NCBI GenBank assembly: GCA_045531355.1
Contig: JAZSDW010000028.1
Span: forward strand, 1 to 56,852
Length of the DNA stretch: 56,852 nt
Reading direction: 5' to 3'
Origin: Clostridia bacterium
Lineage (GTDB): Bacteria; Bacillota; Clostridia; UMGS1883; UMGS1540
Positions 35,774 to 49,605 of the stretch are shown here, in pieces (positions within the stretch are counted from its first letter, which is position 1; the number at the start of each line of letters is the position of its first letter). Under the pieces are notes generated by a model. It was given only the letters and a program-made list of their open reading frames with translations. It was not told the DNA's origin and did not search any database. The translations under genes were made by a program, and so were the position numbers.

Positions 35774-36625
35774 ATGCTGCAAATTGTACAAAAGAACCTG
35801 AAATTTAAGTTGGACGGCTTTTCTGTAAGCGCCAGTGTAGATCATCTTATCCGTGCCGACGACATGCCGTCCGATATTCTGATGCAGAATTTTCATTACC
35901 ACGCCATCTACGAGCTTTTTATCGTGGAAGAAAGCCCGCTGACTGTGTATACAGAATCGGGCACCGCGATTTATCGCAGCGGTATCGTCTGCATTCCGCC
36001 CTTTTTAAAACACCGCACTAAGCGAAAGTGCGGCATCCGGATTTTGTTTTCTCTGGATAAGAACACCACAAGCGGCGATTTTGCAAAATTTATGCACGCC
36101 ACCTTTTCGGCCCAAGCGCCAGTTATTTTGCAGACAAATACGGCGCTTTCGTTTTATGCCGCACAGCTCGCCTCCATTTTAAGTCTGGATACACGCGCTG
36201 CAAATGAAATTGCGTCCTCGCTTGTCCGTCTTATTTTTTACAGTATTTTCTCCGGCAATTACGAACTAAAAAATGCGCCGAGCAAGGAAGCCTTCCTTGC
36301 GACAAACGAAAGCTATTTATCGCGCATTGATGTTATGATTGATTCGTTTGCAGAGAACATCAACCTCCAACTGGTGGCAGACCGCCTGGGGCTGAGCACG
36401 AAGCAAGCCTCAAGAATCATTAAAAAGAACTATAAAAAACCGCTTTCCCAGCTTTTGTGCGAAAAGCGCCTTTCCGTCGCTGCGGAGCTTCTTCTCCGGA
36501 GCGACAAAACGATTCTGGAGATTGTTGACTTTGTCCATTTTCCGTCCGAAAGCTATTTTTACCGCAAATTCAAAGAAGCCTTTGGCTGTACGCCGCTGGC
36601 GTATAGGAAACAAAACCGTCTGTAA
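35774..36625 (+). CDS. AraC family transcriptional regulator (divergent from the oxidoreductase/aldolase operon)
   Basis: C-terminal double HTH (VADRLGLSTKQASRIIKK; FPSESYFYRKFKEAFGCTPLAYR). N-terminal cupin-like domain. Confidence 0.85.
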   Translation: MLQIVQKNLKFKLDGFSVSASVDHLIRADDMPSDILMQNFHYHAIYELFIVEESPLTVYTESGTAIYRSGIVCIPPFLKHRTKRKCGIRILFSLDKNTTSGDFAKFMHATFSAQAPVILQTNTALSFYAAQLASILSLDTRAANEIASSLVRLIFYSIFSGNYELKNAPSKEAFLATNESYLSRIDVMIDSFAENINLQLVADRLGLSTKQASRIIKKNYKKPLSQLLCEKRLSVAAELLLRSDKTILEIVDFVHFPSESYFYRKFKEAFGCTPLAYRKQNRL

Positions 36626-36641
36626 ACTTTTGCGCTGCGAA

Positions 36642-36678
36642 AGAAAAGCCGGCGTGCCCTTTGGCACGCCGGCTTTCT
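36642..36678. terminator. Bidirectional terminator between araC-like gene and hup
   Basis: gccggcgtgcc / ggcacgccggc stem flanked by A- and T-runs. Confidence 0.7.
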
Positions 36679-36689
36679 TTTTGTTATTC

Positions 36690-36962
36690 TTATTTTACGA
36701 GATCCTTCAGCGCCTTGCCGGCCTTAAATACCGGAACATTGGCGGCAGGAATCTGCACCGTGGCACCGGTTTGCGGGTTTTTGCCCGTGCGAGCGGCGCG
36801 TGTGCGCGTTTCGAATGCGCCGAAACCAATCAGCTGCACCTTTTCACCGCTTTTTAATGCCTCGGTAATCGTGGCGATTGCTGCGCCAACGGCCTTTTCC
36901 GCGTCCTTCTTGGACAGCTCTGCCTTGGCAGCAACTGCCGAAATGAGTTCTGCTTTATTCAC
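36690..36962 (-). CDS. hup: DNA-binding protein HU
   Basis: (M)[10 protein letters not shown]...[24 protein letters not shown] start at 36962 follows GGAAGGAG and gives the canonical 90 aa. Confidence 0.9.
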
Positions 36963-36996
36963 ATCTTTCACTCCTTCCGTTTCCTAGCATGTTCCC

Positions 36997-37025
36997 ATTG
37001 TATCACTCCGGAACCGGAATTTCAA
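36997..37025 (-). promoter_or_regulatory. Sigma-A promoter of hup
   Basis: On the minus strand: TTGAAA, 17 nt, TACAAT. Confidence 0.55.
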
Positions 37026-37067
37026 GCTTTTTGTGAAAAAATGTTAGTTTTTTGGGGATTTTTTCTC

Positions 37068-37625
37068 TTATTTCTGTGCGTTTAGATAAGCGGCTCTGCC
37101 TTCTTCGTAGAGATTTCTGCCGGTGCTATCAATAATGACAACGAGCGGCATATCCTCAACATAAAGCTTTCTTAGCGCTTCGGCGCCCAAATCCTCATAG
37201 GCAATAAGCTCCGCGCTTTTGATGCACTTTGCCAGCAGTGCGCCCGCGCCGCCGATGGCGCCAAAATATACGCCGTCATTCTCCTTCATCGCCTCTACGA
37301 CCTCAGGGAGCCGTGCACCCTTTCCAATCATACCGCGTGCGCCGACGCGCATCATGGTAGGCGCATAGGCGTCCATTCTTCCGCTTGTCGTAGGGCCTGC
37401 CGAGCCGATGACCTGTCCCGGCTTTGCCGGCGTAGGACCTACATAATAGATGGTCGCATCCTGCGGGTCAAACGGCAATTTCTCGCCGCGAGAGAGTGCC
37501 TCGCACATTCTTTTGTGGCCCGCGTCACGCGAGGTATAAATTGTACCGGTAAGAAGCACCTCATCGCCGGCCTTTAAGGTTTTTGCAAGCTCTCTTGTCA
37601 GCGGCAGGGTTATTTTTCTCGCCAT
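37068..37625 (-). CDS. Fe-S hydro-lyase beta subunit (class I fumarate hydratase / tartrate dehydratase family)
   Basis: Beta-subunit-like sequence (GTIYTSRDAGHKR, GPTTSGRMD). Lies 1 nt after the alpha subunit gene. Confidence 0.82.
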   Translation of the reverse strand: MARKITLPLTRELAKTLKAGDEVLLTGTIYTSRDAGHKRMCEALSRGEKLPFDPQDATIYYVGPTPAKPGQVIGSAGPTTSGRMDAYAPTMMRVGARGMIGKGARLPEVVEAMKENDGVYFGAIGGAGALLAKCIKSAELIAYEDLGAEALRKLYVEDMPLVVIIDSTGRNLYEEGRAAYLNAQK

Positions 37626-37626
37626 T

Positions 37627-38469
37627 TTAAAGCACCTCCGTCTTGTGTCTTGTCACATGGCAGTTGATATTCACTGCGCACGGCATGCCGGCAATATGCG
37701 TCGGCATCGTTTCGATATTGAGCCCAATAGCTGTCGTTTTGCCACCAAAGCCCTGCGGGCCTATGCCGAGCCGGTTGATTTTTTCGAGCATTTCCTTCTC
37801 AAGGTCGGCATAATACGGGTCGGGATGCGCGGAATCAATCGGCCGCATCAGCGCTTTTTTCGCAAGAAGCGCCGCTTTGTCAAAGGTGCCGCCAATGCCA
37901 ACGCCCACCACCATAGGCGGACAGGGATTCGGCCCCGCCGTTTCCACAACCTCCAGAATAAAGTCCTTGATGCCTTCAATGCCATGCGAGGGCTTGAACA
38001 TCCGGATCTGGCTCATGTTTTCACTGCCGAAGCCCTTGGGACCTACGGTAATTTTCACTTTTTCGCCCGGAACAATTTCCGTATAAATCATAGCGGGGGT
38101 GTTGTCGCCGGTGTTGCCGCGGCGCACCGGGTCCTTCACAACGGATTTCCGGAGATACCCCTTGTCATAGCCGCGACGCACGCCCTCATGAATAGCCTCG
38201 GAAAGGTCGCCACCCACAAAGTGCACATCCTGCCCGATTTCAAGGAATACACACGCCATACCGGTGTCCTGGCAAATCGGCACATTTTCGCGGTCCGCAA
38301 TCTCATAGTTTTCGATGATGTTATCGAGAACGCCTTTTGCAATCTCGCCGTCCTCACACGCCCGGCATCCCTTAATGGCGCATTTTACATCTTCCGGAAG
38401 ATGGTTATTTGCATCGATGCAAAGCTTTTCAACTGTATCGGTAATACAGCTTACATGAATTTCACGCAT
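37627..38469 (-). CDS. Fe-S hydro-lyase alpha subunit (class I fumarate hydratase family)
   Basis: Alpha-subunit-like sequence with cluster Cys residues (PICQDTG, GVGIGGT, NINCHV). Confidence 0.82.
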   Translation of the reverse strand: MREIHVSCITDTVEKLCIDANNHLPEDVKCAIKGCRACEDGEIAKGVLDNIIENYEIADRENVPICQDTGMACVFLEIGQDVHFVGGDLSEAIHEGVRRGYDKGYLRKSVVKDPVRRGNTGDNTPAMIYTEIVPGEKVKITVGPKGFGSENMSQIRMFKPSHGIEGIKDFILEVVETAGPNPCPPMVVGVGIGGTFDKAALLAKKALMRPIDSAHPDPYYADLEKEMLEKINRLGIGPQGFGGKTTAIGLNIETMPTHIAGMPCAVNINCHVTRHKTEVL

Positions 38470-38481
38470 AACAATTCTCCT

Positions 38482-39738
38482 TTAGAATAAGATGATTAAA
38501 AACTGCGATATCAAAACAACGGCAATCAGCGCAATCGGATAGGTCGCTGCGTATGCCGCCGCAACCTCTTCCGTACCGGCGGTATTGATAAGCGTGCCGA
38601 GTGCGGGTGTGCTCGTCATGCCGCCTGTAAGCGACCCCAGATTATTGAGGAGGGATAGGCGAAGCACATATTTTGCAAAGAAAAAGCCGATAATCATAGG
38701 CACAGTTGTCATAATGATGCCGTACACAAAGTACATCGCGTCAAAGTTAGCAACAAAATCCGCGCCGCCCGGGATTCCGGCGCCTACAAGGAAGAGAACA
38801 AGCCCCAGCTCGCGCAGAAGCTTTAAGGTAGACTGCTCCGGCATAAGGCTGAGTTTGCCTATCTTTCCGAAATGGCCGAGCAAGAGTGCAACCAAAAGGC
38901 AGCCGCCCGTTGTCGTCAGCGAAAAACAGGTGCCGGAAAGGCCTGCAGATGAAAGCGGGATTTTAATTTTCCCGATTACCATGCCTAAAATGGCAGCGAG
39001 TGAAAATGCCGCAAAGCCGTGGCCGTCGAGCGAGAGAAGTTTCTTTTCTGTCTTTTTCGCATCCACCACGCCGACGCTCGTAATTTTGGCGCGCTCGGCT
39101 GCCATATCAGCCTTCGTCAGCTTCGGAATGAGCTGCACGAAAAGCACAACGCCGATAACGCCGAATATGTAGGCAATTCCGTGGCCGACAGAAACGAGGC
39201 TTGTAAATTCTTCTGCCACCGTGGCCTTCGCCGCGGAAAAGGCAGGCGTTGAGGTGAGCGAGCCGGACATAAGACCGACAATCATCGCCACAAAGCCCTC
39301 GCGACTTTCGATAGAAGCACCATAGCCGATTGCATCACCGATATAAATGCAGGCGATTGCAGAAAGCCCACCGGCCAAAATAACGATAAAGCCGAGAAGA
39401 ACATAGGACTTAAAGTTTTTCTTCATATTGCCGAAGAATTTCGGACCGGCAATAAAACCGACTGAGGTTACGAATAAAACAAGGCCGAGCGTTTCAATAA
39501 TTTCCAGCGCCTTGTCAACAAACGAAACTGCCGCATCGCCCAAAAGAAGCTGATTTTCCAGCGGTGCAAAGCCGAGCGCACCAAATAAAAGTGCCACCAC
39601 AAACACACCCGCATCGCCGAGCGATACGCCGCGCACCGTAATCCGGCCGAGTGCGTAGCCGCCAAACAGAATTGCAAATACGCAAAACATCAGAAAGGTA
39701 ATTCCGGTTACGGGAATTACGCCGCCAAATAATGTCAT
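38482..39738 (-). CDS. AAE (aspartate:alanine exchanger / YidE-like) family permease; putative C4-dicarboxylate transporter
   Basis: Polytopic protein with two internally similar halves. No obvious central TrkA-C domains (418 aa). RBS is AAGGAG. Confidence 0.6.
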   Translation of the reverse strand: MTLFGGVIPVTGITFLMFCVFAILFGGYALGRITVRGVSLGDAGVFVVALLFGALGFAPLENQLLLGDAAVSFVDKALEIIETLGLVLFVTSVGFIAGPKFFGNMKKNFKSYVLLGFIVILAGGLSAIACIYIGDAIGYGASIESREGFVAMIVGLMSGSLTSTPAFSAAKATVAEEFTSLVSVGHGIAYIFGVIGVVLFVQLIPKLTKADMAAERAKITSVGVVDAKKTEKKLLSLDGHGFAAFSLAAILGMVIGKIKIPLSSAGLSGTCFSLTTTGGCLLVALLLGHFGKIGKLSLMPEQSTLKLLRELGLVLFLVGAGIPGGADFVANFDAMYFVYGIIMTTVPMIIGFFFAKYVLRLSLLNNLGSLTGGMTSTPALGTLINTAGTEEVAAAYAATYPIALIAVVLISQFLIILF

Positions 39739-39765
39739 GACAAATCTCCTTTTTTACATACCTTT

Positions 39766-39815
39766 GGGGCTATGGCAAATCTTTCCATTTGCCGTAGCCC
39801 CACCGTTTTCTTTTT
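39766..39815. other. 15-bp stem-loop in the only sizeable gap of the operon
   Basis: ggggctatggcaaat (39766-80) pairs with atttgccgtagcccc (39787-801). A T-rich run follows on the plus strand only. Confidence 0.5.
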
Positions 39816-41412
39816 ATCGTTCGTGCCGTGCGTAATTCGGAAGGAGCATCGGCGACATTCCCTCTTCATGAAGGCCCGCCTTCTCCAGTTCGTCCGCATA
39901 CGCAGCTACATGGTCAAGATTTGCGCTTCCGAGCACCGTTTCCTTCGCGCGCGCGGCCGCGGCCTTGCCCGCGTTTCTGCCGAACACGATAATATCGAGA
40001 AGGGAGTTTCCCATCAGGCGGTTTCTGCCGTGAATACCGCCAACGGCTTCGCCGGCCACAAGCAAGTTCGGAATAGCCTTCGTAAAGCCATCGCCGCCGA
40101 TTTCAAGCCCGCCGTTCTGATAGTGCAGCGTCGGATAAACAAGAATCGGCACTTTGCGCATATCAATGTCGTAGTTAAGATACATACGGAACATTGCCGG
40201 GATTCTCTTTTCAATTGTGCCCGGGCCGCCAATCATTTCAATCATCGGCGTGTCCAGCCATACGCCGCTGCCGAGTGGTGTTTCTACGCCTCGGCCCTCG
40301 GCGCATTCACGAATAATCGCGGATGCGGAAACATCTCTTGTTTCCAGCGGATGCGCATACGCTTCCCCGTCGCGGTTTACGAGCATCGCCCCGAGCGAGC
40401 GGACCTTTTCCGTTACGAGCGCGCCGAAAATCTGTGAGGGATAAGCAACGCCCGTAGGATGATACTGAATCGTATCCTGGTAAAGAAGCGGTGCACCGGC
40501 ACGGTAGCCTAAAATGAGGCCATCGGCGGTGGCGCCGTAATGGTTCGAGGTGGGGAAGTTCTGGTAATGGAGTCTGCCGGCGCCGCCGGTTGCAATCACA
40601 ACGGTTTTGGCGCGGGCCACTAAATAATCTCCGGTTTCCATATTCATAAGAACCGCACCGGCTACCTGTCCCTTGTCGTCCTTCAGAAGTTCAACGGCAG
40701 AGGTAAATTCCACCACCGGAATGCCACGGTTGATAACCTCGTCCCGGAGCGTACGCATAATTTCTGCGCCGGAATAGTCCTTGCACGCGTGCATTCTCTT
40801 GCGGCTTGTGCCGCCGCCGTGTGTTGTGACCATGCGGCCGTCGGCGTCCTTGTCGAACATAACACCGAGGTCGTTAAGCCAGCGAATGGCATCAGGTGCC
40901 TCCATAACGAGGCGACGAAGAAGCTCTGGACGCGCCGCAAAGTGGCCGCCGCCGAACGCATCGAGATAATGCTGCACCGGCGAATCGTTTTCCTTGTCGG
41001 CCGCCTGAATGCCGCCTTCCGCCATCATGGTGTTGGCATCGCCGATGCGAAGCTTTGTGACAATCATCACGCTCGCGCCGGCCTCATGGGCTTCAATCGC
41101 CGCAGAAGACCCGGCACCGCCGCCGCCAATCACCAGCACATCTACATCGTAATCGATTTTGGTAATATCAATGTCCTCGCCTAAAATACGGCTGTTCGAG
41201 TGAAGAAGCTGTGCAAGCTCCTTCGGGGCTTTCTGGCCTTTATTGGGGCCAATCTGTATCGTATCAAACCCATCTTGGCGATAGTCAGGATGGAAAGCCT
41301 TCAGCAGGGTATCCTTCTCTTCCGCCGTCATTCTTCTCGGCTCCGTTTTCATACGCGCTTCGCGTGTGGCTTCCACCTTTTTGATGGATGCAAGCATTTC
41401 TGCAGTAAACAT
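39814..41412 (-). CDS. Soluble fumarate reductase/succinate dehydrogenase-type flavoprotein (FrdA/SdhA/NadB superfamily), non-covalent FAD type
   Basis: GGGGAGSSAA dinucleotide fold, QYHPTG, TEKVRS (Arg kept), TLHYQNGG, GRNRLMGNSL. Asn replaces the FAD-linking His (GDANTMMAEGG compared with RSHTVAAEGG). Confidence 0.75.
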   Translation of the reverse strand: MFTAEMLASIKKVEATREARMKTEPRRMTAEEKDTLLKAFHPDYRQDGFDTIQIGPNKGQKAPKELAQLLHSNSRILGEDIDITKIDYDVDVLVIGGGGAGSSAAIEAHEAGASVMIVTKLRIGDANTMMAEGGIQAADKENDSPVQHYLDAFGGGHFAARPELLRRLVMEAPDAIRWLNDLGVMFDKDADGRMVTTHGGGTSRKRMHACKDYSGAEIMRTLRDEVINRGIPVVEFTSAVELLKDDKGQVAGAVLMNMETGDYLVARAKTVVIATGGAGRLHYQNFPTSNHYGATADGLILGYRAGAPLLYQDTIQYHPTGVAYPSQIFGALVTEKVRSLGAMLVNRDGEAYAHPLETRDVSASAIIRECAEGRGVETPLGSGVWLDTPMIEMIGGPGTIEKRIPAMFRMYLNYDIDMRKVPILVYPTLHYQNGGLEIGGDGFTKAIPNLLVAGEAVGGIHGRNRLMGNSLLDIIVFGRNAGKAAAARAKETVLGSANLDHVAAYADELEKAGLHEEGMSPMLLPNYARHER

Positions 41413-41424
41413 GGCTTTCCCTCC

Positions 41425-42099
41425 TTATTTCTCAATCTCTCTTGTATTATAAAGCTCTTGCATTTCGCTAATCGGCTTTGCCATAACCTTTTCAATCAGC
41501 TCGTCATACGCGCCCTCGTTAATTTCGGCAACGCGTGCAGTAAGGTGCTCTGTCTTCGGAGCAATATATTTACCGACAAGGCGACGGGAAAGAAGACCAA
41601 CCATCGGATGAGAAATGCCGGCCGGGCAACGAACCGAGCAGCAACCGCAGCTTACGCAGTCAAACGATTCCTCGGCACACTTTTCAAATTCGCCGCGCTG
41701 GGCGTAGGCGATATACTGCATAACATTCAGGCTCTGCGTACACGCCTTCGTGCAGGCATTACAGCCGATGCAGCTGTAAATTTCCGGATACAGCTCCATC
41801 ATCACGCGCTGTTCGGGACGGATTTCCTTAATATCATAGGTTCTCTTATCGGTCGGGAAGAACGGGATGCTTGCAACATACATGCCCTCCTGCACCTGCG
41901 TTTGGCACGCGAGACAGGTTTTCAGCTCGTTTTTCCCCTTTATCCGGTAAATCGTTGCGCACGCGCCGCAAAATCCGTGGCGGCAGCCGCAGCCTCTCTT
42001 AAGCGTATAGCCCGCATATTCCATAGCCGTCATAATGGTAAGGTCGCCGGGTACGCTATACTTTTTACCGAAAAAATATACATTTACCATATTTTCCAT
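41425..42099 (-). CDS. SdhB/FrdB-like iron-sulfur subunit
   Basis: 2Fe-2S motif CRHGFCGAC...C, then CIGCNACTKAC and CVSCGCCSVRCP ferredoxin motifs. Ends 12 nt upstream of the flavoprotein gene. Confidence 0.7.
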   Translation of the reverse strand: MENMVNVYFFGKKYSVPGDLTIMTAMEYAGYTLKRGCGCRHGFCGACATIYRIKGKNELKTCLACQTQVQEGMYVASIPFFPTDKRTYDIKEIRPEQRVMMELYPEIYSCIGCNACTKACTQSLNVMQYIAYAQRGEFEKCAEESFDCVSCGCCSVRCPAGISHPMVGLLSRRLVGKYIAPKTEHLTARVAEINEGAYDELIEKVMAKPISEMQELYNTREIEK

Positions 42100-42116: not shown

Positions 42117-42971
42117 TTAATACTCGCTTGGCATTTCATCTATTTCATCGCAGCGGAACACCGGCCCGTCCTTGCAGACATATTTAGAGCCAATATTGCA
42201 TCTGCCGCATTTGCCGACGCCGCACTTCATACGAAGCTCCAATGTGGTATAGACCTGCTCCTTGGAAAATCCCATTTCCATAAGCCCCGCAAGCACAAAT
42301 TTAATCATAATCGGCGGCCCGCAAAGGAGAGCCGTTTTGTCGGTCGAAAAGCCGATTTCCTTAAGGTACGCCGGCACAAAGCCCACATGGCCGTCCCAGC
42401 CTTCCTGTTCCCGGTCAATCGTCAGATAAACATTTACGCCCTCCGTCTTTTCCCAAACCTCGCGGATTTCCTTCAGCTGTACAAGGTCATCTGCCGAGCG
42501 GGAACCGTAGAGGATATCCACTGTTCCATAATCCGCGCGATTGTCAAGTACATAGTTAATTACAGAGCGAAGCGGTGCAAGGCCGATACCGCCGGCAATA
42601 AACAGAAGGTTTTTCCCCTTCAGCTCCGTTTCGACCGGGAAATGATTGCCGTACGGCCCGCGGACGGTAATCTCGTCTCCGACCGAAAGGCTATGGAGAT
42701 AATCTGTAAGCTCGCCGCATTTTTTGATGCTGAATTCCTGAAACTCCAAATTTGTGGGCGAGGAGGTAATCGAGAACATCGCCTCACTCACGCCCGGCGC
42801 ACAAAGCATTGCGCATTGGCCAGGCATGTGTTCAAAAAGCTTCCCGCCGCCCGGCGCATTGACGCGGAAGGTCTTAACATCCGGCGTTTCCTGCCGGATA
42901 TCCGTAATGATGCCTACTTTCGGAATCAGCGTATCTTCATAATACTTGTCATGGCAATTACATTCACACAT
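42117..42971 (-). CDS. FAD/NAD(P)H-binding oxidoreductase with C-terminal 2Fe-2S (FlxA / HydG / AsrB / PyrK-like)
   Basis: FNR-like fold (FSITSSP, FIAGGIGLAPLRS) and C-terminal CGVGKCGRC...C. Confidence 0.75.
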   Translation of the reverse strand: MCECNCHDKYYEDTLIPKVGIITDIRQETPDVKTFRVNAPGGGKLFEHMPGQCAMLCAPGVSEAMFSITSSPTNLEFQEFSIKKCGELTDYLHSLSVGDEITVRGPYGNHFPVETELKGKNLLFIAGGIGLAPLRSVINYVLDNRADYGTVDILYGSRSADDLVQLKEIREVWEKTEGVNVYLTIDREQEGWDGHVGFVPAYLKEIGFSTDKTALLCGPPIMIKFVLAGLMEMGFSKEQVYTTLELRMKCGVGKCGRCNIGSKYVCKDGPVFRCDEIDEMPSEY

Positions 42972-44001
42972 TTTCTTTGCCCTCCTTTTCAGAAAATGCC
43001 TTCATTACTTTTGCAATATTCAGGCCCGTGGGGCACTTTTCCACGCACCGGCCGCAGCCCACGCAAGAGAACATGCCGTCGTACCTTGCCGGATAATACA
43101 CAAGCTTGTGCATAAACCGCTGGCGATATCGTTGCATTTGGCTGGTGCGGTTGTTGCCGTGCGCCATCATCGTAAAGTCTGCATACATGCAGGAGTCCCA
43201 GCAGCGATAGCGCTGCACACCCTGGCTCGTCGTATAATCCTTAATATCGTAGCACTGGCAGGTGGGGCAGACAAAAGTACAGGTCCCACAGGCAATGCAC
43301 GGCTTATACAGCTCTTCCCAAAGGGGAGAGTCAAACTTTTCCTTCTCCACTGCAGCGCCCCAGCCTTCCGTTGTTAAGCCGGCATAGGGGAGGCGTTTCA
43401 TAATTCCGCGGATGCTTTCCTTTTCCGCCTCAACATCCGCCTCGTCGGCAGAAGCAAAAAGTGCTTCGAGCGTTTCGGTCAGCGCTTCGCCCTTTTCGGT
43501 GTTCGCCTTCCAGTAAAGCATATCGCCGATAAAATAGGTGTCAACATCTGCACCCGGTTCGGCACTGTCTATGCCAAAAGTCCCGCAAAAGCAGCTTTCT
43601 TCCGGTGCATGGCACGCGAGCGCCACCACAGTGCCGTGTTCTCTTCTTGCTTTATAGAAGGAATCGACCGGCTCGGAGAGAAAGACATTGTCAAGCACCG
43701 CAAAGCCGCGCGCGTCGCAGGCACGAACGCCAAATACCACAAAGTCCTCGTCCATGCGCTCGCCCGGTGTGACAGAAAGGTGTCCATCCGTCTTTTCACA
43801 GGTATAGAGCGTTTCGCTCTGCGGGAAAAAGACATCTTTTGCAGATTTAACCGTTTTGAGCGTGTCTAAATCCACTTTTGCACCCTCGCTCCAGAGCGCA
43901 AAATTGGTCTGCCCGCCGTCCTCCACCGGCAAAAACAGGCTGGCATTTTCGGAAATGGCGGCAAAAAGCGCCGAAAGCTTTTCCTTTTGTATCTTTTTCA
44001 T
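42964..44001 (-). CDS. Polyferredoxin-type Fe-S protein (FlxB / AsrA / sulfhydrogenase beta-like)
   Basis: CIACGTCTFVCPTCQC and CVGCGRCVEKCP motifs. Start set at ATG 44001 (MKKIQKEKL). Confidence 0.65.
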   Translation of the reverse strand: MKKIQKEKLSALFAAISENASLFLPVEDGGQTNFALWSEGAKVDLDTLKTVKSAKDVFFPQSETLYTCEKTDGHLSVTPGERMDEDFVVFGVRACDARGFAVLDNVFLSEPVDSFYKARREHGTVVALACHAPEESCFCGTFGIDSAEPGADVDTYFIGDMLYWKANTEKGEALTETLEALFASADEADVEAEKESIRGIMKRLPYAGLTTEGWGAAVEKEKFDSPLWEELYKPCIACGTCTFVCPTCQCYDIKDYTTSQGVQRYRCWDSCMYADFTMMAHGNNRTSQMQRYRQRFMHKLVYYPARYDGMFSCVGCGRCVEKCPTGLNIAKVMKAFSEKEGKENV

Positions 44002-44005
44002 ACTG

Positions 44006-44980
44006 TCAACCCCTTTCCCGGCCGGCACCCGGCTCGATATCATCGGTACGGAAATCCGTCAGAGGGCCGCGGGCTTCTGCGTCCGCACCGGCCTGGTATT
44101 CACCATAAAACGCGTCGATGTCGCTGATGAATTTCCGGTTTAAAAGGTGCAAGGGAATATTCTCGGGACAAACGCGGCTACACTCGCCGCAATCGGTACA
44201 TCTTCCCGCCACATGGAAGGCGCGGATGATGTGAAACATCTTTTCTTCAAACGGATCGACATTTGCTTTCTTCGCGCTGTCAAACTTCGTGCTGTCAAAG
44301 ACGCACTTGCGGCAACTGCACGCAGGACATACATTCCGGCAGGCGTTACAGCGGATGCAGCGCGAAAGCTCGCTCTGGAAAAAGGCAAACTTTTCTTCCG
44401 GTGACATCTTCTCGATGGCGCGCACCTTCTCCATACGGTCGGCATCGTTTGTCTCACGGCTCTCGCCGATGATTTCGTCAAAAATCATGTGCGTTTTGCC
44501 TTTGCAGACATGGCACCGCTCGAGCATGGCGTCCCGGTACGGCAGTTCCTTGTCGCCATAAAGCGTTTGCACCTTTAAAGTCTCGCTCGGTGCAAAGGCG
44601 TCTGCTCCCTCGACCGTCAATATGCCGCGGATGCCTGCTTCCTTTATCTTTTCGGCGCTGATTTTCCCTGCACAGCCAACGCCGACAATATATGCCTTTT
44701 CTCTGTCTACTCTGTGTTCCTTTAAAAGCTGGTTAAAACTATAAGTGTCGCAGGGTTTTAAGAACACGAGCGTCTTGCCTTCCTTTTTGGAAGCTTCAAT
44801 CATATATTTACTTAAGTTTGCGCCGCAAAAGCCGTTATACACAAAACTCGAGAGCTCTTCTTCTGTTTCAAAGAACGCCGGCTCGGGATTGTAGGCGAGG
44901 TCGCCATGCTTCCAGCCCAGAACGCGTGCGACCGAGCCATCTGCAAGATGGGCTTTGGCGCATTCGATTACTGCTTGCAT
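44006..44980 (-). CDS. Fe-S protein (FlxC-like)
   Basis: CIRCNACRNVCPACSC and CTDCGECSRVCP motifs. Start at ATG 44980 (MQAVIECAK) follows GGGGGA. The longer tracked ORF overlaps the mvhD-like gene. Confidence 0.6.
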   Translation of the reverse strand: MQAVIECAKAHLADGSVARVLGWKHGDLAYNPEPAFFETEEELSSFVYNGFCGANLSKYMIEASKKEGKTLVFLKPCDTYSFNQLLKEHRVDREKAYIVGVGCAGKISAEKIKEAGIRGILTVEGADAFAPSETLKVQTLYGDKELPYRDAMLERCHVCKGKTHMIFDEIIGESRETNDADRMEKVRAIEKMSPEEKFAFFQSELSRCIRCNACRNVCPACSCRKCVFDSTKFDSAKKANVDPFEEKMFHIIRAFHVAGRCTDCGECSRVCPENIPLHLLNRKFISDIDAFYGEYQAGADAEARGPLTDFRTDDIEPGAGRERG

Positions 44981-45405
44981 CTTAAATCCCCCAATCGTAC
45001 ATTCTCGCCGAGCGAACGGATTTTTTCCACAAAATCGTTCATAACGGCGGAAAAGCGAACGCCCTCGGCAGCGGATACCCATTCTACACGGGTGCGGCCT
45101 TCCTCCACGCCAAGATAGTCGAGCATGGAGAAGAGAAGCGTCATTCTTCTTCTTGCATAATAGTTTCCTGTAGAATAGTGGCAGTCGCCGGGGTGGCACC
45201 CGCAGAGAATGACCCCGTCGGCGCCCTTTTCAAAAGCACGCAGAATGAACATAGGGTTAACTCTGCACGAGCATGGAACGCGGATAATTTTTACATCCGC
45301 CGGATACGAAAGGCGGCTGGAGCCGGCAAGGTCCGCACCGGCATAGCTGCACCAGTTGCAGCAAAACGCAACAATTTTAGGTCTGAATTCTTTTTCTACC
45401 GGCAT
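44968..45405 (-). CDS. MvhD/FlxD-like protein (methyl-viologen-reducing hydrogenase delta subunit family)
   Basis: FCCNWCSYAGADLAG, RVPCSCRV, CGCHPGDCHY. Confidence 0.85.
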   Translation of the reverse strand: MPVEKEFRPKIVAFCCNWCSYAGADLAGSSRLSYPADVKIIRVPCSCRVNPMFILRAFEKGADGVILCGCHPGDCHYSTGNYYARRRMTLLFSMLDYLGVEEGRTRVEWVSAAEGVRFSAVMNDFVEKIRSLGENVRLGDLRCKQ

Positions 45406-47384
45406 ATTGCATCCACCTCCGCAAGAATTTGTCTGTTAGAAAAGCCCTTTAAATCCATCGCGCCGGACGGACAGGCAACCGTACACGCGCCGCATCCCTG
45501 ACAGAGCGCGCTGTTTACAACCGCAATGCGCCGTACCTCACGCACACCGTGGTCATTGATTTCGCGTTCCTCGTATCCAATCGCGCCGTAGGGGCAGACA
45601 TTCTGACAAACGGAGCAGCCGTTACAAAGAAGCGTGTCGGACTCGGCAGTACACGGATTCGTCATAAGCTTATCCTTTGCCAGAAGACCGATAACCTTTA
45701 CTGCCGCCGCGCCTGCCTGCGAAACCGTTTCCGGAATATCCTTCGGCCCCTGGCAAACGCCGGAGAGGAATACGCCGGCCGTCGGCGATTCAACCGGGCG
45801 AAGCTTCGGGTGCGCTTCGGTTAAGAAATTATTCGTATCAATGCTTGCCGCGAGCATGGTGGCAATCTTCCGGACACTCGGCTCCGGCTCAATAGCAGTA
45901 GCCAAAACAACCATGTCCGCATCCATCTGAATCTGACGCTGGTCGAGAAGGTCGGAGGCCTGCACCCGAAGGCGGCCATCGGGCTGGGGCACAACCTTGC
46001 CCACCTGCCCCTTGATATAGTCTACGCCGTATTCCTCCACGGCACGGCGGTAAAACTCGTCAAAATTCTTGCCGGGGGTACGCACATCAATATAGAACAC
46101 CGTCACATGCACATCCGGATACTTATCGCGAATGAGCATGGCGTGCTTTGCGGTATACATGCAGCAGATTTTGGAGCAATACGGCTTTCCCCTGTGGTCG
46201 TCACAACGGCTGCCAACGCACTGCACAAACACAATTTCCTTAGGGGCTTTCCCGTCGGAAAGGCGCTCCAAATGCCCCTTTGTCGGCCCCGCCGCATTCA
46301 TGATGCGCTCAAGCTCTAAAGAGGTAATCACATCCTGACTTTCGCCATACGCATACTCGCCGTACTTTTCGAGATTAATCGTATCAAACCCTGTTGCGAC
46401 GACGATGGCGCCGTACGCTTCGGTAATGATTTCATCCTTCTGGTTATAATCAATCGCGCCTGCCTGGCAAATCTTTTCGCAGAGGCCGCACTTGCCAGTT
46501 TTAAATTTCACGCAAGCCTCGCGGTCAATGACCGGCACATTCGGAATGGCCTGTGCGAAGGGCGTGTAGATTGCGCTTCTTGTGCCGAGACCGCGGTTAA
46601 ATTCGCTCGGCGTCTTTTTCGAAGGACATTTTTCCTGGCAAAGACCGCAGCCGGTGCATTTTGTAATGTCCACGCTTCTGGCCTTCTTCCGGATATCTAC
46701 CGAGAAATTACCGACAAAGCCGGAAACCTTTTCCACTTCGCTATAGGTGTGAATCGTAATATTTTCATGCGCCGCCGCTTCCACCATTTTTGGTGTCAGG
46801 ATACAGGCAGAGCAGTCGAGTGTGGGGAAGGTTTTGTCGAGCTGGCTCATTCTGCCGCCGATGCTCGGCGATTTTTCCACGATGTCGACCTTGTAGCCGG
46901 CGTCGGCAATATCCAGCGCCGTCTGAATGCCCGCAATACCGCCGCCGATAACGAGCGCGCGCTTGGTAACAAGGCTCTCGCCCGGCTTAAGGTGCGTGTT
47001 GAGATGCAATTTCGCAATCGCCGCACGGCCGAGGATGACGGCCTTTTCCGTCGCTTCCTCTATATCCTTATGAATCCACGAGCAATGCTCACGGATGTTG
47101 GCAATTTCCACCATGTAGGGGTTGAGGCCTGCCCGCTCGGCCGCCTTTCTGAAGGTGGCCTCGTGCATACGGGGCGAACAGGAACAAACAACGATACCGG
47201 AAAGGTTTTTCTCTTTGATTGCCGCGGCAATTCTGGCCTGTCCTGCCTCCGAGCACATATACGGATAATCTTCGGCGTGTACTACGCCCGGCTCTTTCCT
47301 TAAAATTTCTGCGACACGCCCGACATCGACCGTTGCCGCGATGTTACTGCCACAATGACAAATAAATACGCCTACCTTCTGCAC
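45396..47384 (-). CDS. hdrA: Heterodisulfide reductase subunit A-like flavoprotein
   Basis: N-terminal FICHCGSNI, FAD fold VIGGGIAGIQTALD, and several CxxCxxCxxxC(P) motifs. GTG start at 47384 follows AGGAGGTG. Confidence 0.85.
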   Translation of the reverse strand: MQKVGVFICHCGSNIAATVDVGRVAEILRKEPGVVHAEDYPYMCSEAGQARIAAAIKEKNLSGIVVCSCSPRMHEATFRKAAERAGLNPYMVEIANIREHCSWIHKDIEEATEKAVILGRAAIAKLHLNTHLKPGESLVTKRALVIGGGIAGIQTALDIADAGYKVDIVEKSPSIGGRMSQLDKTFPTLDCSACILTPKMVEAAAHENITIHTYSEVEKVSGFVGNFSVDIRKKARSVDITKCTGCGLCQEKCPSKKTPSEFNRGLGTRSAIYTPFAQAIPNVPVIDREACVKFKTGKCGLCEKICQAGAIDYNQKDEIITEAYGAIVVATGFDTINLEKYGEYAYGESQDVITSLELERIMNAAGPTKGHLERLSDGKAPKEIVFVQCVGSRCDDHRGKPYCSKICCMYTAKHAMLIRDKYPDVHVTVFYIDVRTPGKNFDEFYRRAVEEYGVDYIKGQVGKVVPQPDGRLRVQASDLLDQRQIQMDADMVVLATAIEPEPSVRKIATMLAASIDTNNFLTEAHPKLRPVESPTAGVFLSGVCQGPKDIPETVSQAGAAAVKVIGLLAKDKLMTNPCTAESDTLLCNGCSVCQNVCPYGAIGYEEREINDHGVREVRRIAVVNSALCQGCGACTVACPSGAMDLKGFSNRQILAEVDAICR

Positions 47385-47388
47385 AAAA

Positions 47389-47778
47389 TCACCTCCTGTT
47401 TCTTCTGAATGCACTGACTAAAAGCTGCTGGGGTGTTTCCGCCTCCACCAGCGTCCCCACAGTATCGGGGGAAAGTCCCTCGCCATCTCTCTGCCGCACG
47501 ACCATCTGTCTGGCCGCGTCAATCAGGCGTGCCGGCTCTACGCTTCTCGGGCAGCGCTCGATGCACGCAAAGCATGCAAGGCATTTCCAGAGAGAAGCGG
47601 AAGAAGCGAGCGCCTCTATGTCGCCGCGAAGCACATAGGACACAAACTGATGGGGCTTTATATCCATTTCCTCGTATGCGGGACAAGTGGCCGAGCACTT
47701 GCCGCATTTCATACATTTATAGGGATTCACACCGCTGATTTCCCGGATGCGTTCCACCTTTGTTTCCGTCGTATTCAC
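47389..47778 (-). CDS. hdrC: Heterodisulfide reductase subunit C-like
   Basis: CMKCGKCSATCP and CLACFACIERCP. Overlaps the hdrB stop by 4 nt. Confidence 0.85.
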   Translation of the reverse strand: MNTTETKVERIREISGVNPYKCMKCGKCSATCPAYEEMDIKPHQFVSYVLRGDIEALASSASLWKCLACFACIERCPRSVEPARLIDAARQMVVRQRDGEGLSPDTVGTLVEAETPQQLLVSAFRRNRR

Positions 47779-48563
47779 CGAAGTGCTCCCTCCTTTACAC
47801 CGAGCGCCTCTGCCAGAAGCTCTGTAAAATAATAGACCGGCAGCTTGTCGCTCTTATTTAAATTATACATGCAAAGCGGACAGGCCGTAAGCAGCATTTC
47901 CGCCCCAAATCCCGCCGCATTTTCCATAATCGTATCGCACATGTTCTTCGCGCGCTGGCCATCAGAAAGCGAGGCATAGCCGCCGCAGCACTCGTTCCGC
48001 ATGGCATAGGAAACGGGCTCAGCGCCTATTGCGCGGATAAAGTCCTCTATAATCGTCGGGCTTTCCGGGTCATCAAAGGCCATAATCTGCCCCGGACGAA
48101 GCAGAAGGCAGCCGTAATAAGCACCGATTTTTCTGCCGGTAAGCGGGTTCTTTACTTTTTTTGCGAGTTCGTCGAAGCCCACCTTGTCCCGCAGAACCTC
48201 CAGAAAGTGCAAAACCTCGGTTTCGCCCTGATACGGCACTTCATTTTGCATATAGAGATTGGCCGCATCCCGGATTTTCGGCACATGCTTCATATCGTCA
48301 TTGACACGCTTTAAGACATGGTGGCAAGCCGAGCAAAGCGTTACAAGCGCCTGCCCCTTTTCTCTGGCGGCGCAAAGCGCGCGCACAGAAGAAAGCTTTG
48401 TGGCAATTTCGTCTGTTCCCAGCGGATACACACCGCCGCAGCACTGCCAATCCTCGACTTCCTCCAGCGTAAAGCCCAGCGCCTTTGCCGATGCTCTTGC
48501 ATACGCATCCAGCGCCTTCGCCTTCGTGCGCAGCGTACAGCCGGGATAATAGCTATACATCAT
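47775..48563 (-). CDS. hdrB: Heterodisulfide reductase subunit B-like (two CCG domains)
   Basis: YYPGCT, WQCCGG and NECCGG motifs. Confidence 0.85.
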   Translation of the reverse strand: MMYSYYPGCTLRTKAKALDAYARASAKALGFTLEEVEDWQCCGGVYPLGTDEIATKLSSVRALCAAREKGQALVTLCSACHHVLKRVNDDMKHVPKIRDAANLYMQNEVPYQGETEVLHFLEVLRDKVGFDELAKKVKNPLTGRKIGAYYGCLLLRPGQIMAFDDPESPTIIEDFIRAIGAEPVSYAMRNECCGGYASLSDGQRAKNMCDTIMENAAGFGAEMLLTACPLCMYNLNKSDKLPVYYFTELLAEALGVKEGALR

Positions 48564-48575
48564 TTGTCGCTCCTC

Positions 48576-49523
48576 CTACTCTAAATCCAACTGTTTAATA
48601 ACATCCTTCAGTACATTGGCGCTGTGGTGCAGCTTCTTATATTCCTCCGCATCCAGCGGAACCGGCAGCTTGCCGAGAACGCCACCGCAGCCGATTCTGG
48701 TCAGCGTACTGATGCACACATCCTCTAAATCATATTCCCCGTGCATCATCGAGGAAACCGTTACAATCGAGGTTCTCGGCGCTACCAGAATGTTACAGAG
48801 GCGGCAAACGCTCATCGCAACGGCATAGTAGGTTGCGCCCTTTCCTTCAATAATCATGCCGCCGGATTTGCGGACACGCTCTTCCATCGTCTCTCTGTCC
48901 ATCGGGGGCAGATTGTCGCCACATGCTTTGGCAAGCTGGGTGTATTCCTCCACACTCACCGTCGAAATGCGCGCGCAGGACCAGGGCACGAACGAAGTGT
49001 CACCATGCTCACCGAAAATATAGGCATGAATGCTCTTTTGCGCTACGCCGAAATGCTCCGAAAGCGCATGACGGAGACGCGAGGTATCGAGAAGCGTTCC
49101 CGAACCGAGAACCTGCCTTTCCGGAAGCCCGGATTTCTTCATAAACACATAGGTGATAATGTCTACGGGGTTGCTTACAACGATATACACCGCATCCGGC
49201 GCCGCCTTGGCAATCTTCGGCGCAATTTCCTTTATAATATCCACATTCGTCTGCGCGAGGTCAATACGGCTCTGCCCTGGCTTTCTTGCGACACCCGAGG
49301 TAATAATTACAATATCAGAGCCTTTTGCATCTTCGTAATCCCCGCTGGTAACCGAAATGGCATCGCGGAAGCTTGTGCCCTGCATAATGTCCATAACCTC
49401 GCCGCCGGCTTTCTTCTTGTTAATGTCAATGAGAACAATTTCTGTCGCCAGACTCTCCGTAGAAAGGGTGTAGGCAATCGTTGCGCCTACGCTTCCGGCT
49501 CCGATAATAGTAATCTTGCTCAT
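48576..49523 (-). CDS. LDH-family NAD-dependent 2-hydroxyacid dehydrogenase with Arg at the Q102-equivalent position (predicted malate/oxaloacetate preference)
   Basis: IIGAGSVGA, the LDH active-site signature IFGEHGDTS, and DTSRLR. The specificity loop reads SGVARKPGQSRIDL (Arg codon at 49284-49286), where LDHs have Gln. Confidence 0.8.
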   Translation of the reverse strand: MSKITIIGAGSVGATIAYTLSTESLATEIVLIDINKKKAGGEVMDIMQGTSFRDAISVTSGDYEDAKGSDIVIITSGVARKPGQSRIDLAQTNVDIIKEIAPKIAKAAPDAVYIVVSNPVDIITYVFMKKSGLPERQVLGSGTLLDTSRLRHALSEHFGVAQKSIHAYIFGEHGDTSFVPWSCARISTVSVEEYTQLAKACGDNLPPMDRETMEERVRKSGGMIIEGKGATYYAVAMSVCRLCNILVAPRTSIVTVSSMMHGEYDLEDVCISTLTRIGCGGVLGKLPVPLDAEEYKKLHHSANVLKDVIKQLDLE

Positions 49524-49576: not shown

Positions 49577-49605
49577 TTTATATCACATTGTTAAAAATTT
49601 ATCAA
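49577..49605 (-). promoter_or_regulatory. Candidate operon promoter overlapped by a Rex-like operator
   Basis: On the minus strand: TTGATA, 17 nt, TGaTATAAA. The 18-mer TTGTTAAAAATTTATCAA (49588-49605) compares with the Clostridial Rex consensus TTGTTAANNNNTTAACAA at 1 mismatch. Confidence 0.45.

Follow-up and report, generated by a model that had tools for sequence, protein, structure and literature searches.

The stretch of DNA analyzed here (the window, 56,852 nucleotides) covers positions 1 to 56,852 of contig JAZSDW010000028.1 from the Clostridia bacterium assembly GCA_045531355.1, and all coordinates are relative to it. Its minus strand carries an mdh-like gene that starts with the ATG at 49523, ends with the TAG at 48578–48576 and encodes a 315-residue protein (the window protein) of the lactate dehydrogenase/malate dehydrogenase (LDH/MDH) superfamily. 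The genes hdrBCA, flxDCBA, frdBA, a transporter gene and fumAB follow downstream on that strand, closely spaced or slightly overlapping (Table 1). As proposed in a first-pass annotation, the mdh-like gene is the first gene of this tightly packed predicted operon. The same annotation had the hdrB start 12 nt from the stop codon with an AGGAGG in between; the distance from TAG to ATG is indeed 12 nt, but the AGGAGG takes in the stop codon's last two bases and is not wholly intergenic.

Table 1. Features of the mdh-like gene, its upstream region and the genes downstream of it.
Feature	Positions	Strand	Evidence
mdh-like gene, LDH/MDH superfamily, 315 aa, predicted NADH-dependent L-malate dehydrogenase, first gene of the operon	48576..49523	-	Open reading frame (ORF), Pfam, NCBIfam, trees
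AGA codon for Arg80, residue 102 in normalized LDH numbering, substrate-discriminating, mobile loop	49284..49286	-	Sequence and PDB alignment
mdh-like/hdrB junction: TAG, AGGAGG (48577-48572), 8-nt spacer, hdrB ATG at 48563	48564..48578	-	Sequence
Rex-like inverted repeat TTGATAAATTTTTAACAA over the -35 and spacer of a TTGATA-17-TATAAA promoter-like site	49588..49605	-	Sequence
HdrB-like protein, two CCG domains	47775..48563	-	Pfam CCG 3.9e-17; best NCBIfam SdhE/HdrB, below cut-offs
HdrC-like 4Fe-4S dicluster protein	47389..47778	-	Pfam Fer4_8 and related families
HdrA-like flavoprotein	45396..47414	-	NCBIfam HdrA2 799.8 bits, below equivalog cut-off; Pfam matches
MvhD/FlxD-like protein	44968..45405	-	Pfam FlpD 5.2e-55
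FlxC-like protein, FrhB/FdhB C-terminal domain and 4Fe-4S	44006..44980	-	Pfam; start 44980 chosen by hand from ORF
FlxB-like Fer4_22 iron-sulfur protein	42964..44043	-	Pfam Fer4_22 2.2e-31
FlxA-like FAD/NAD(P)-binding oxidoreductase	42117..42971	-	NCBIfam sulfhydrogenase gamma, AsrB, PyrK-like, below cut-offs
Fumarate reductase iron-sulfur subunit-like protein	41425..42099	-	Weak NCBIfam matches including TfrB N-terminus
Fumarate reductase flavoprotein, TfrA-like	39814..41412	-	NCBIfam TfrA 330 bits, SdhA/FrdA families, below equivalog cut-offs
AspT/YidE/YbjL-family transporter, candidate C4-dicarboxylate or succinate carrier	38482..39738	-	TIGR01625 duplication domain 132.9 bits vs. 71.95
Class I fumarate hydratase alpha subunit	37627..38469	-	NF004885 421.8 bits vs. 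276
Class I fumarate hydratase beta subunit	37068..37625	-	NF005310 289.7 bits vs. 238

Both superfamily domains exceeded their gathering scores in the window protein (Ldh_1_N, 151.5 bits against a cut-off of 27, 2e-44; Ldh_1_C, 106.6 bits against 22.6, 1.8e-30), and the L-LDH motifs IFGEHGDTS, DTSRLR and GSGTLLD, together with the specificity loop SGVARKPGQSRIDL, were found in the translation as first described. When all Protein Data Bank (PDB) chains were searched with phmmer, 132 matches at E <= 1e-20 were obtained, and the 60 of them that were listed had all been deposited as L-LDH, bar one with an uninformative name. The window protein is 40–48% identical to many solved LDHs, and its match to 1ldn scored about 235 bits. 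In the alignments with solved LDHs, TSGVARKPGQSRIDL of the window protein pairs with TAGAAQKPGETRLDL in 4m1q and with AAGVPQKPGETRLQL in 1a5z, and no gap interrupts the specificity loop. Because of this, Arg80, counted from the ATG at 49523 and read from an AGA codon at the site predicted for it, occupies the Gln102 column, and Arg86 occupies the Arg109 column; no shift of the loop that would move the Arg away from position 102 was seen. The residues R86, D146, R149 and H173 align to the catalytic or substrate-carboxylate residues R109, D168, R171 and H195.

To the top 120 homologues (at least 65% identity) a simple loop pattern was applied; 114 of them matched it and were scorable, and Arg stood at position 102 in 114 of 114. 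A full-length homologue alignment showed Arg in all sequences with at least 50% identity, and the same residue was present at all 44 loci with at least 46% identity among 55 loci from named genomes. Among representatives of 50%-identity clusters, which are 34–50% identical to the window protein, residue 102 varies (about 30 Arg vs. 71 Gln). Since Arg80 is invariant in close homologues and named loci, it is no chance residue. Some relatives are over-long: in P0148 (720 aa) and P0212 (684 aa) the LDH-like part is C-terminal (about residues 391–720) behind a region of roughly 400 aa, and P0003 (462 aa) and P0064 (490 aa) likewise exceed the usual length. These may be fusions or merged gene calls.

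Positions 68, 102, 199, 246 and 250 were taken as diagnostic (PMC9486893), and the window protein has Q (Q48), R, S (S177), T (T231) and V (V235) there. The canonical LDH signature was not found at three of its positions, since Gln102, His68 and an acidic residue 199 are all lacking; Thr246 is present, and Ile250 is replaced by the conservative variant Val. From the type-3 MDH signature (R102, M199, A/S246 and P250) the window protein shares only R102. Eight reference sequences exceeding the TIGR01763 cut-off have E or Q at 68, R102, M199, A246 and P250. The 22 sequences of the clade that holds the window protein in the trees described below (the window clade) have Q68 in 20, R102 in 22, S199 in 20 and T246 in 21 cases, with V (15), I (6) or C (1) at position 250. 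The signature is therefore mixed: Q68 and R102 are MDH-like, T246 and V250 are LDH-like, and S199 is neither. As judged from these residues, substrate-contact features lean toward MDH and scaffold features lean toward LDH. An acidic residue 199, which keeps charge neutrality in the LDH site (PMC9486893), was present in 48 of 71 Gln102 sequences vs. 1 of 48 (one E) across four Arg102 groups. This covariation of residues 199 and 102 spans independent lineages, and it could improve the automatic discrimination of LDH from MDH.

The prediction that similarity-based annotation would name such a gene ldh was borne out. The window protein passed the NCBIfam L-LDH equivalog TIGR01771 (333.2 vs. a cut-off of 303.55) and, by 0.5 bit only, the L-LDH family NF000824 (339.5 vs. 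339). It failed TIGR01763, the equivalog of bacterial type-3 tetrameric MDH (217.5 vs. 351.85), and just passed NF004863, a broad MDH subfamily (286 vs. 283). The named homologues in NCBI, nr or JGI carry the name L-lactate dehydrogenase.

The window protein was placed among LDHs and MDHs in trees rooted on the eight sequences exceeding the TIGR01763 cut-off. The data set was our own, not a published one, and comprised 139 sequences for FastTree and 93 for a careful IQ-TREE search (LG+G4, lnL -46879). Both trees show the outgroup, then a ladder of all-Arg lineages, and then a polytomy of four branches: an all-Arg branch of two sequences, the window clade, a 1y6j-like clade (named after PDB 1y6j; 10 Arg and 2 Pro, support 96/96) and 54 rows that group with weak support. 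In the careful tree, the window clade is monophyletic with support 100/99, and all of its members (22/22) have Arg. The 54-row group holds all 36 Gln102 sequences, including a second paralogue of the source genome, and the window clade lies outside it. In both trees the window clade thus branches between the TIGR01763-type MDHs and the Gln102 LDHs. When it was forced together with the 1y6j-like clade, the approximately unbiased (AU) test did not reject the union (p = 0.82), and the constrained tree was better than the quick free tree. A quick IQ-TREE search had put the Arg-bearing 1y6j-like group within the LDH crown; this topology was set aside because it is suboptimal, 64 log-likelihood units below the careful tree. 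A recent reversal from Gln to Arg within an LDH subclade was ruled out, as no Gln102 sequence stands within or beside the window clade. Because an all-Arg lineage lies outside the group that holds the Gln102 sequences, Arg102 is most simply ancestral and retained from malate dehydrogenases; as far as the trees indicate, the Arg of the window clade is probably ancestral rather than switched from Gln in an LDH.

To follow the neighborhood, 13 window proteins were compared by tblastn with the 55 named loci. The Arg102 gene lies beside an Hdr/Flx/Frd cluster in 40 of 55 loci, and the linked loci include Oscillospiraceae, Lachnospiraceae, Faecalimonas, Tyzzerella, Agathobacter, Ruminococcus sp. and the cultured Christensenella hongkongensis HKU16. 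At two loci (L055 and L058) the Arg102 gene stands at the far end of the cluster, directly after fumAB. In C. hongkongensis HKU16 (L052) a 454-aa protein is encoded between the Arg102 gene and hdrB (L052:10973-12337), with the fumarate-lyase signature GSSIMPGKVNP and a FumC-type N-terminus, which makes it class II fumarase-like by motif reading only. The gene order there reads mdh-fumC-hdrBCA-flxDCBA-frdBA. No match to the class I fumAB of the window was detected in the examined stretch of that locus. This looks like a non-orthologous replacement of the class I by a class II fumarase within the same operon. Six further loci (L038, L049, L051, L053, L054 and L065) have a gap of about 1.4–1.7 kb between the Arg102 gene and hdrB, from whose similar size we infer the same insert. 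The linkage survives both rearrangement and replacement of the fumarase class, and therefore points to a functional tie to malate.

At seven loci of Lachnospiraceae and Merdiplasma (e.g., L048) the Arg102 gene stands alone; all five unlinked genomes that were searched carry a TfrA-like flavoprotein elsewhere (67–84% identity). Of 200 genomes sampled evenly across the class, 41 had a homologue (at least 50% identity); a TfrA-like protein was present in 38 of these (33 on the same contig) and not found in 3. Among the 159 genomes without a homologue, it was present in 9 and not found in 150. Because the genomes are related, these counts describe a pattern and do not amount to a statistical test. 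The claim that the gene fits a malate route far better than lactate metabolism is thus backed by a linkage to fumarase and fumarate reductase that is conserved across families of Clostridia.

The source assembly (1.38 Mb, 90 contigs, 94% complete) has two Ldh_1_N genes, the mdh-like gene and a canonical LDH. The latter (contig 24, L002:1483-2421, plus strand, 312 aa, loop AAGAAQKPGESRTDL) has the complete canonical set H68/Q102/E199/T246/I250 and stands away from the Hdr and fumarate reductase genes. Its presence means that the pyruvate job is already covered. A GTP-dependent phosphoenolpyruvate carboxykinase (PEPCK, 555.7 bits) is encoded on contig 9. Ldh_2, malate:quinone oxidoreductase (Mqo), malic enzyme (PF00390) and ATP-PEPCK were not found in this 94%-complete genome. 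Since no other MDH type was found, the route from phosphoenolpyruvate (PEP) to succinate is complete only if the mdh-like gene supplies the MDH. A continuation from succinate to propionate was considered and rejected, as no methylmalonyl-CoA mutase was found in the source genome; succinate looks like an end product. Contig 75 (36575-38565, plus strand) encodes a carboxyltransferase domain of the pyruvate carboxylase/oxaloacetate decarboxylase alpha type (337 bits, TIGR01235 positions 530–991), followed by a biotinyl-domain match. This protein could be an oxaloacetate decarboxylase or transcarboxylase at the oxaloacetate node.

The promoter-like site and the overlapping Rex-like box lie about 55–80 nt upstream of the mdh-like start. 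At 24 of 42 loci, a Rex-like box with at most 2 mismatches to TTGTTAAnnnnTTAACAA lies upstream of the homologue at a distance of no more than 350 nt. The background of 0.019 per 350 nt was computed over mostly coding DNA, so that the enrichment is overstated. All 24 loci with such a box, from within the range L015–L053, are operon-linked, and none of 7 unlinked loci has one. A Rex box cannot distinguish LDH from MDH. A scan for consensus promoters and terminators gave 17 sites vs. 11.3 +/- 3.3 expected, with no significant enrichment; the scan missed the TTGATA-17-TATAAA site because of its last-base rule for the second hexamer. Where frdA and the transporter gene are separated by the one sizeable intergenic space in the operon, there is a perfect-looking 16-bp stem-loop (39765–39802) that is terminator-like on the plus (antisense) strand only.

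We consider it likely, from residue 102, the tree and the neighborhood, that the window protein is primarily an oxaloacetate/malate enzyme, as the first-pass annotation had predicted, and that it uses NADH; the choice of oxaloacetate over pyruvate is one that we infer. The mdh-like gene is very probably the only malate dehydrogenase gene of the cell. The use of NADH is suggested by the Asp of VLIDIN, which closes the second beta-strand and takes the NAD-specifying acidic position. In the proposed mechanism, Arg80 (=102), carried by the mobile active-site loop, would be the partner of oxaloacetate's 4-carboxylate, Arg149 (=171) would bind the 1-carboxylate, His173/Asp146 (=195/168) would form the proton relay and Arg86 (=109) would polarize the carbonyl. 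The GTP-dependent PEPCK encoded elsewhere would convert PEP to oxaloacetate, and the window protein, as the first enzyme of a presumably co-transcribed succinate branch, would reduce oxaloacetate to malate with NADH. FumAB would then yield fumarate, which a soluble FrdAB coupled to the Flx-Hdr module would reduce to succinate for export by the AspT/YidE/YbjL-type carrier. Flux could run in the reductive direction from PEPCK, or in the oxidative direction during malate/fumarate dismutation.

Several observations weigh against an assignment as MDH. The window protein exceeds the cut-offs of both L-LDH hidden Markov models and misses that of the MDH equivalog. It retains Thr246 and a beta-branched residue 250, a pair considered to favor pyruvate and disfavor oxaloacetate, and both substrates are used by some T246-bearing members of the intermediate group (PMC9486893). 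The fructose-1,6-bisphosphate (FBP) site signature of LDH is also retained (R173 in 19, H188 in 20 and Y190 in 21 of the 22 clade members). Deep branches of the careful IQ-TREE tree are moderately supported (80–90), with a bootstrap that is not fully converged; the co-occurrence counts are not independent; the draft in which other MDH types were not found is 94% complete; and the substrate preference of the clade is deduced from sequence.

The same residues T246 and V/I250 could belong to a dual-substrate 2-oxoacid reductase that turns over oxaloacetate and pyruvate at physiologically relevant rates and serves as MDH and LDH at once, especially in relatives without a second paralogue. Intermediate-group MDHs with T246 that accept both substrates have been reported (PMC9486893), the ldh and mdh products of Clostridium cellulolyticum have overlapping activities (PMC3268733), and 28 of the 41 sampled clade-carrying genomes show no second LDH-family match at E <= 1e-40. 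The source genome, however, keeps a separate canonical Q102/H68/E199 LDH, and the A. fulgidus enzyme, which combines R102 with T246, has no detectable pyruvate activity (Table 1 of PMC9486893). In Geobacillus stearothermophilus LDH, Gln102Arg alone gave an efficient and highly specific MDH, according to the account in PMC3268733 (Wilks et al., 1988, cited therein). On balance, an enzyme with both physiological roles, although the chief alternative to an MDH, appears unlikely.

If the existing name were right, the window protein would be a true L-lactate dehydrogenase, tied to the Flx-Hdr module only by co-regulation of its NADH/NAD+ turnover. This would account for the scores with TIGR01771 and NF000824, for PDB matches deposited as L-LDH, for the conserved R173/H188/Y190 and for the Rex-like box upstream, as ldh genes are classical Rex targets. 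A model for such an arrangement is the alcohol dehydrogenase of Desulfovibrio, which is linked to FlxABCD-HdrABC. This explanation is very unlikely: Arg102 is invariant, H68 and the acidic residue 199 are both lost, the window clade lies outside the group that holds all Gln102 sequences, and the source genome has its canonical paralogue. Moreover, the linkage tracks fumarase and fumarate reductase through rearrangements and through the exchange of fumarase class, and 1y6j, one of the 'LDH' matches in the PDB, itself has Arg at 102. A reductase of another anionic 2-oxo acid (2-oxoglutarate to L-2-hydroxyglutarate, or sulfopyruvate to sulfolactate) is barely credible: Arg102 indicates only a negatively charged distal group, which could be another acidic one, and 2-hydroxyglutarate formation by such enzymes has been raised (PMC3268733), but the operon has no gene for such a pathway, its conserved neighbors are fumarase, which acts on malate, and fumarate reductase, and no other MDH was found to feed them.

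If the window clade consists of malate dehydrogenases, the combination of Arg102 with a complete LDH-type FBP-binding signature raises a more speculative reading, in which it would be the first allosteric, FBP-responsive MDH. Glycolytic flux could then gate the entry of carbon into the succinate branch, the last step of which is proposed to be ferredoxin-reducing (Flx-Hdr-coupled). Full homotropic and heterotropic regulation is unreported for any intermediate-group MDH (PMC9486893). The clade has Gln rather than His at position 68, the 'door' residue of allosteric LDHs (PMC9486893), which speaks against this reading, and we regard it as rather unlikely.

These data suggest that (i) a large family of gut and rumen Clostridia named L-lactate dehydrogenase in NCBI and JGI, found in Christensenella, Oscillospiraceae and Lachnospiraceae (among them Faecalimonas, Tyzzerella and Agathobacter), very probably provides the malate dehydrogenase step in a branch that forms succinate; and (ii) metabolic models that rely on the present names would have lactate produced where succinate is made and leave a gap between PEPCK and fumarase. 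The family also marks the start of an operon with a predicted Flx-Hdr-linked fumarate reductase, and it is a bacterial, operon-anchored addition to the 'intermediate' enzymes for studying the origin of LDH from MDH. The finding is an annotation correction that bears on metabolic modeling. Specialists will not be surprised, because the principle that Arg102 means MDH and a clostridial precedent are already published (PMC3268733); the window family is a further Arg lineage.

The nearest engineered counterpart is the Geobacillus L-LDH, which has the fold and catalytic residues in common with the window protein. As that work is cited, its Gln102Arg variant, in which R102 sits on a T246/I250 scaffold, works efficiently as an MDH; such a scaffold therefore supports oxaloacetate reduction. 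The window protein differs in being natural, from an ancient Arg lineage, and in lacking H68 and the acidic residue 199.

The clostridial precedent consists of Ccel_0137 (C. cellulolyticum) and Cthe_0345 (C. thermocellum), which were first predicted to be LDHs and have Arg81 where the true LDH has Gln86; Ccel_0137 proved by knockout to be the main MDH of C. cellulolyticum, where it is paired with malic enzyme (PMC3268733). Like these enzymes, the window protein was predicted to be an L-LDH, has Arg at 102 and co-exists with a Gln102 LDH paralogue. T246, I/V250 and R173/H188/Y190 are alike in the clostridial LDH-like MDHs, the 1y6j-like group and the window protein. The C. thermocellum structure PDB 1y6j bears the name L-lactate dehydrogenase; its loop TAGANRKPGETRLDL shows Arg in the Gln102 column, and it is the best structural relative of P0139, a representative of the 1y6j-like clade. 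We presume that 1Y6J is Cthe_0345. It is probably the malate dehydrogenase paralogue of C. thermocellum, in which case the misnaming reaches the structure database. In our reading of the alignment, 1y6j is only about 40–45% identical to the window protein, which has Q68/S199 vs. H68/Q199 in the 1y6j-like group. The genomic partner also differs, being the Flx-Hdr/fumarate reductase/fumarase operon here and NADP malic enzyme (the 'malate shunt') for the Ccel_0137/Cthe_0345 type.

Type-3 tetrameric MDHs (TIGR01763, e.g., from Bacillus and Chloroflexus) have R102, R109, D168, R171, H195, a non-His residue 68 and the predicted reaction in common with the window protein. They differ from it at S199/T246/V250, which are M199/A246/P250 in 8 of 8 references, and in the equivalog cut-off that it misses. 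An 'intermediate group' of MDHs has been placed between type-3 MDH and canonical LDH (by Brochier-Armanet and Madern in 2021, as presented in PMC9486893 and PMC10583557), and on that account the window clade matches it in its branching between type-3 MDHs and Gln102 LDHs and in its mixed signature. The combination Q68, R102, T246, V/I250 and S199 is absent from the commonest combinations in PMC9486893, and the characterized members named there, from A. fulgidus and I. islandicus, are archaeal.

The closest match to the operon is the 'succinate operon' of Pseudoclostridium thermosuccinogenes, which comprises fumarate hydratase, Flx-Hdr and fumarate reductase as well as a putative succinate carrier, and for which a Flx-Hdr-coupled, ferredoxin-reducing fumarate reductase has been proposed, not demonstrated (PMC7282089, where the operon is attributed to the preprint of Koendjbiharie and van Kranenburg, 2019). 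Flx-Hdr, an anchorless FrdAB, fumarase, a putative exporter and a proposed GTP-PEPCK route are common to both systems. As listed in PMC7282089, the P. thermosuccinogenes operon is without an mdh, whereas the window and 39 other named loci have the cluster together with the Arg102 dehydrogenase.

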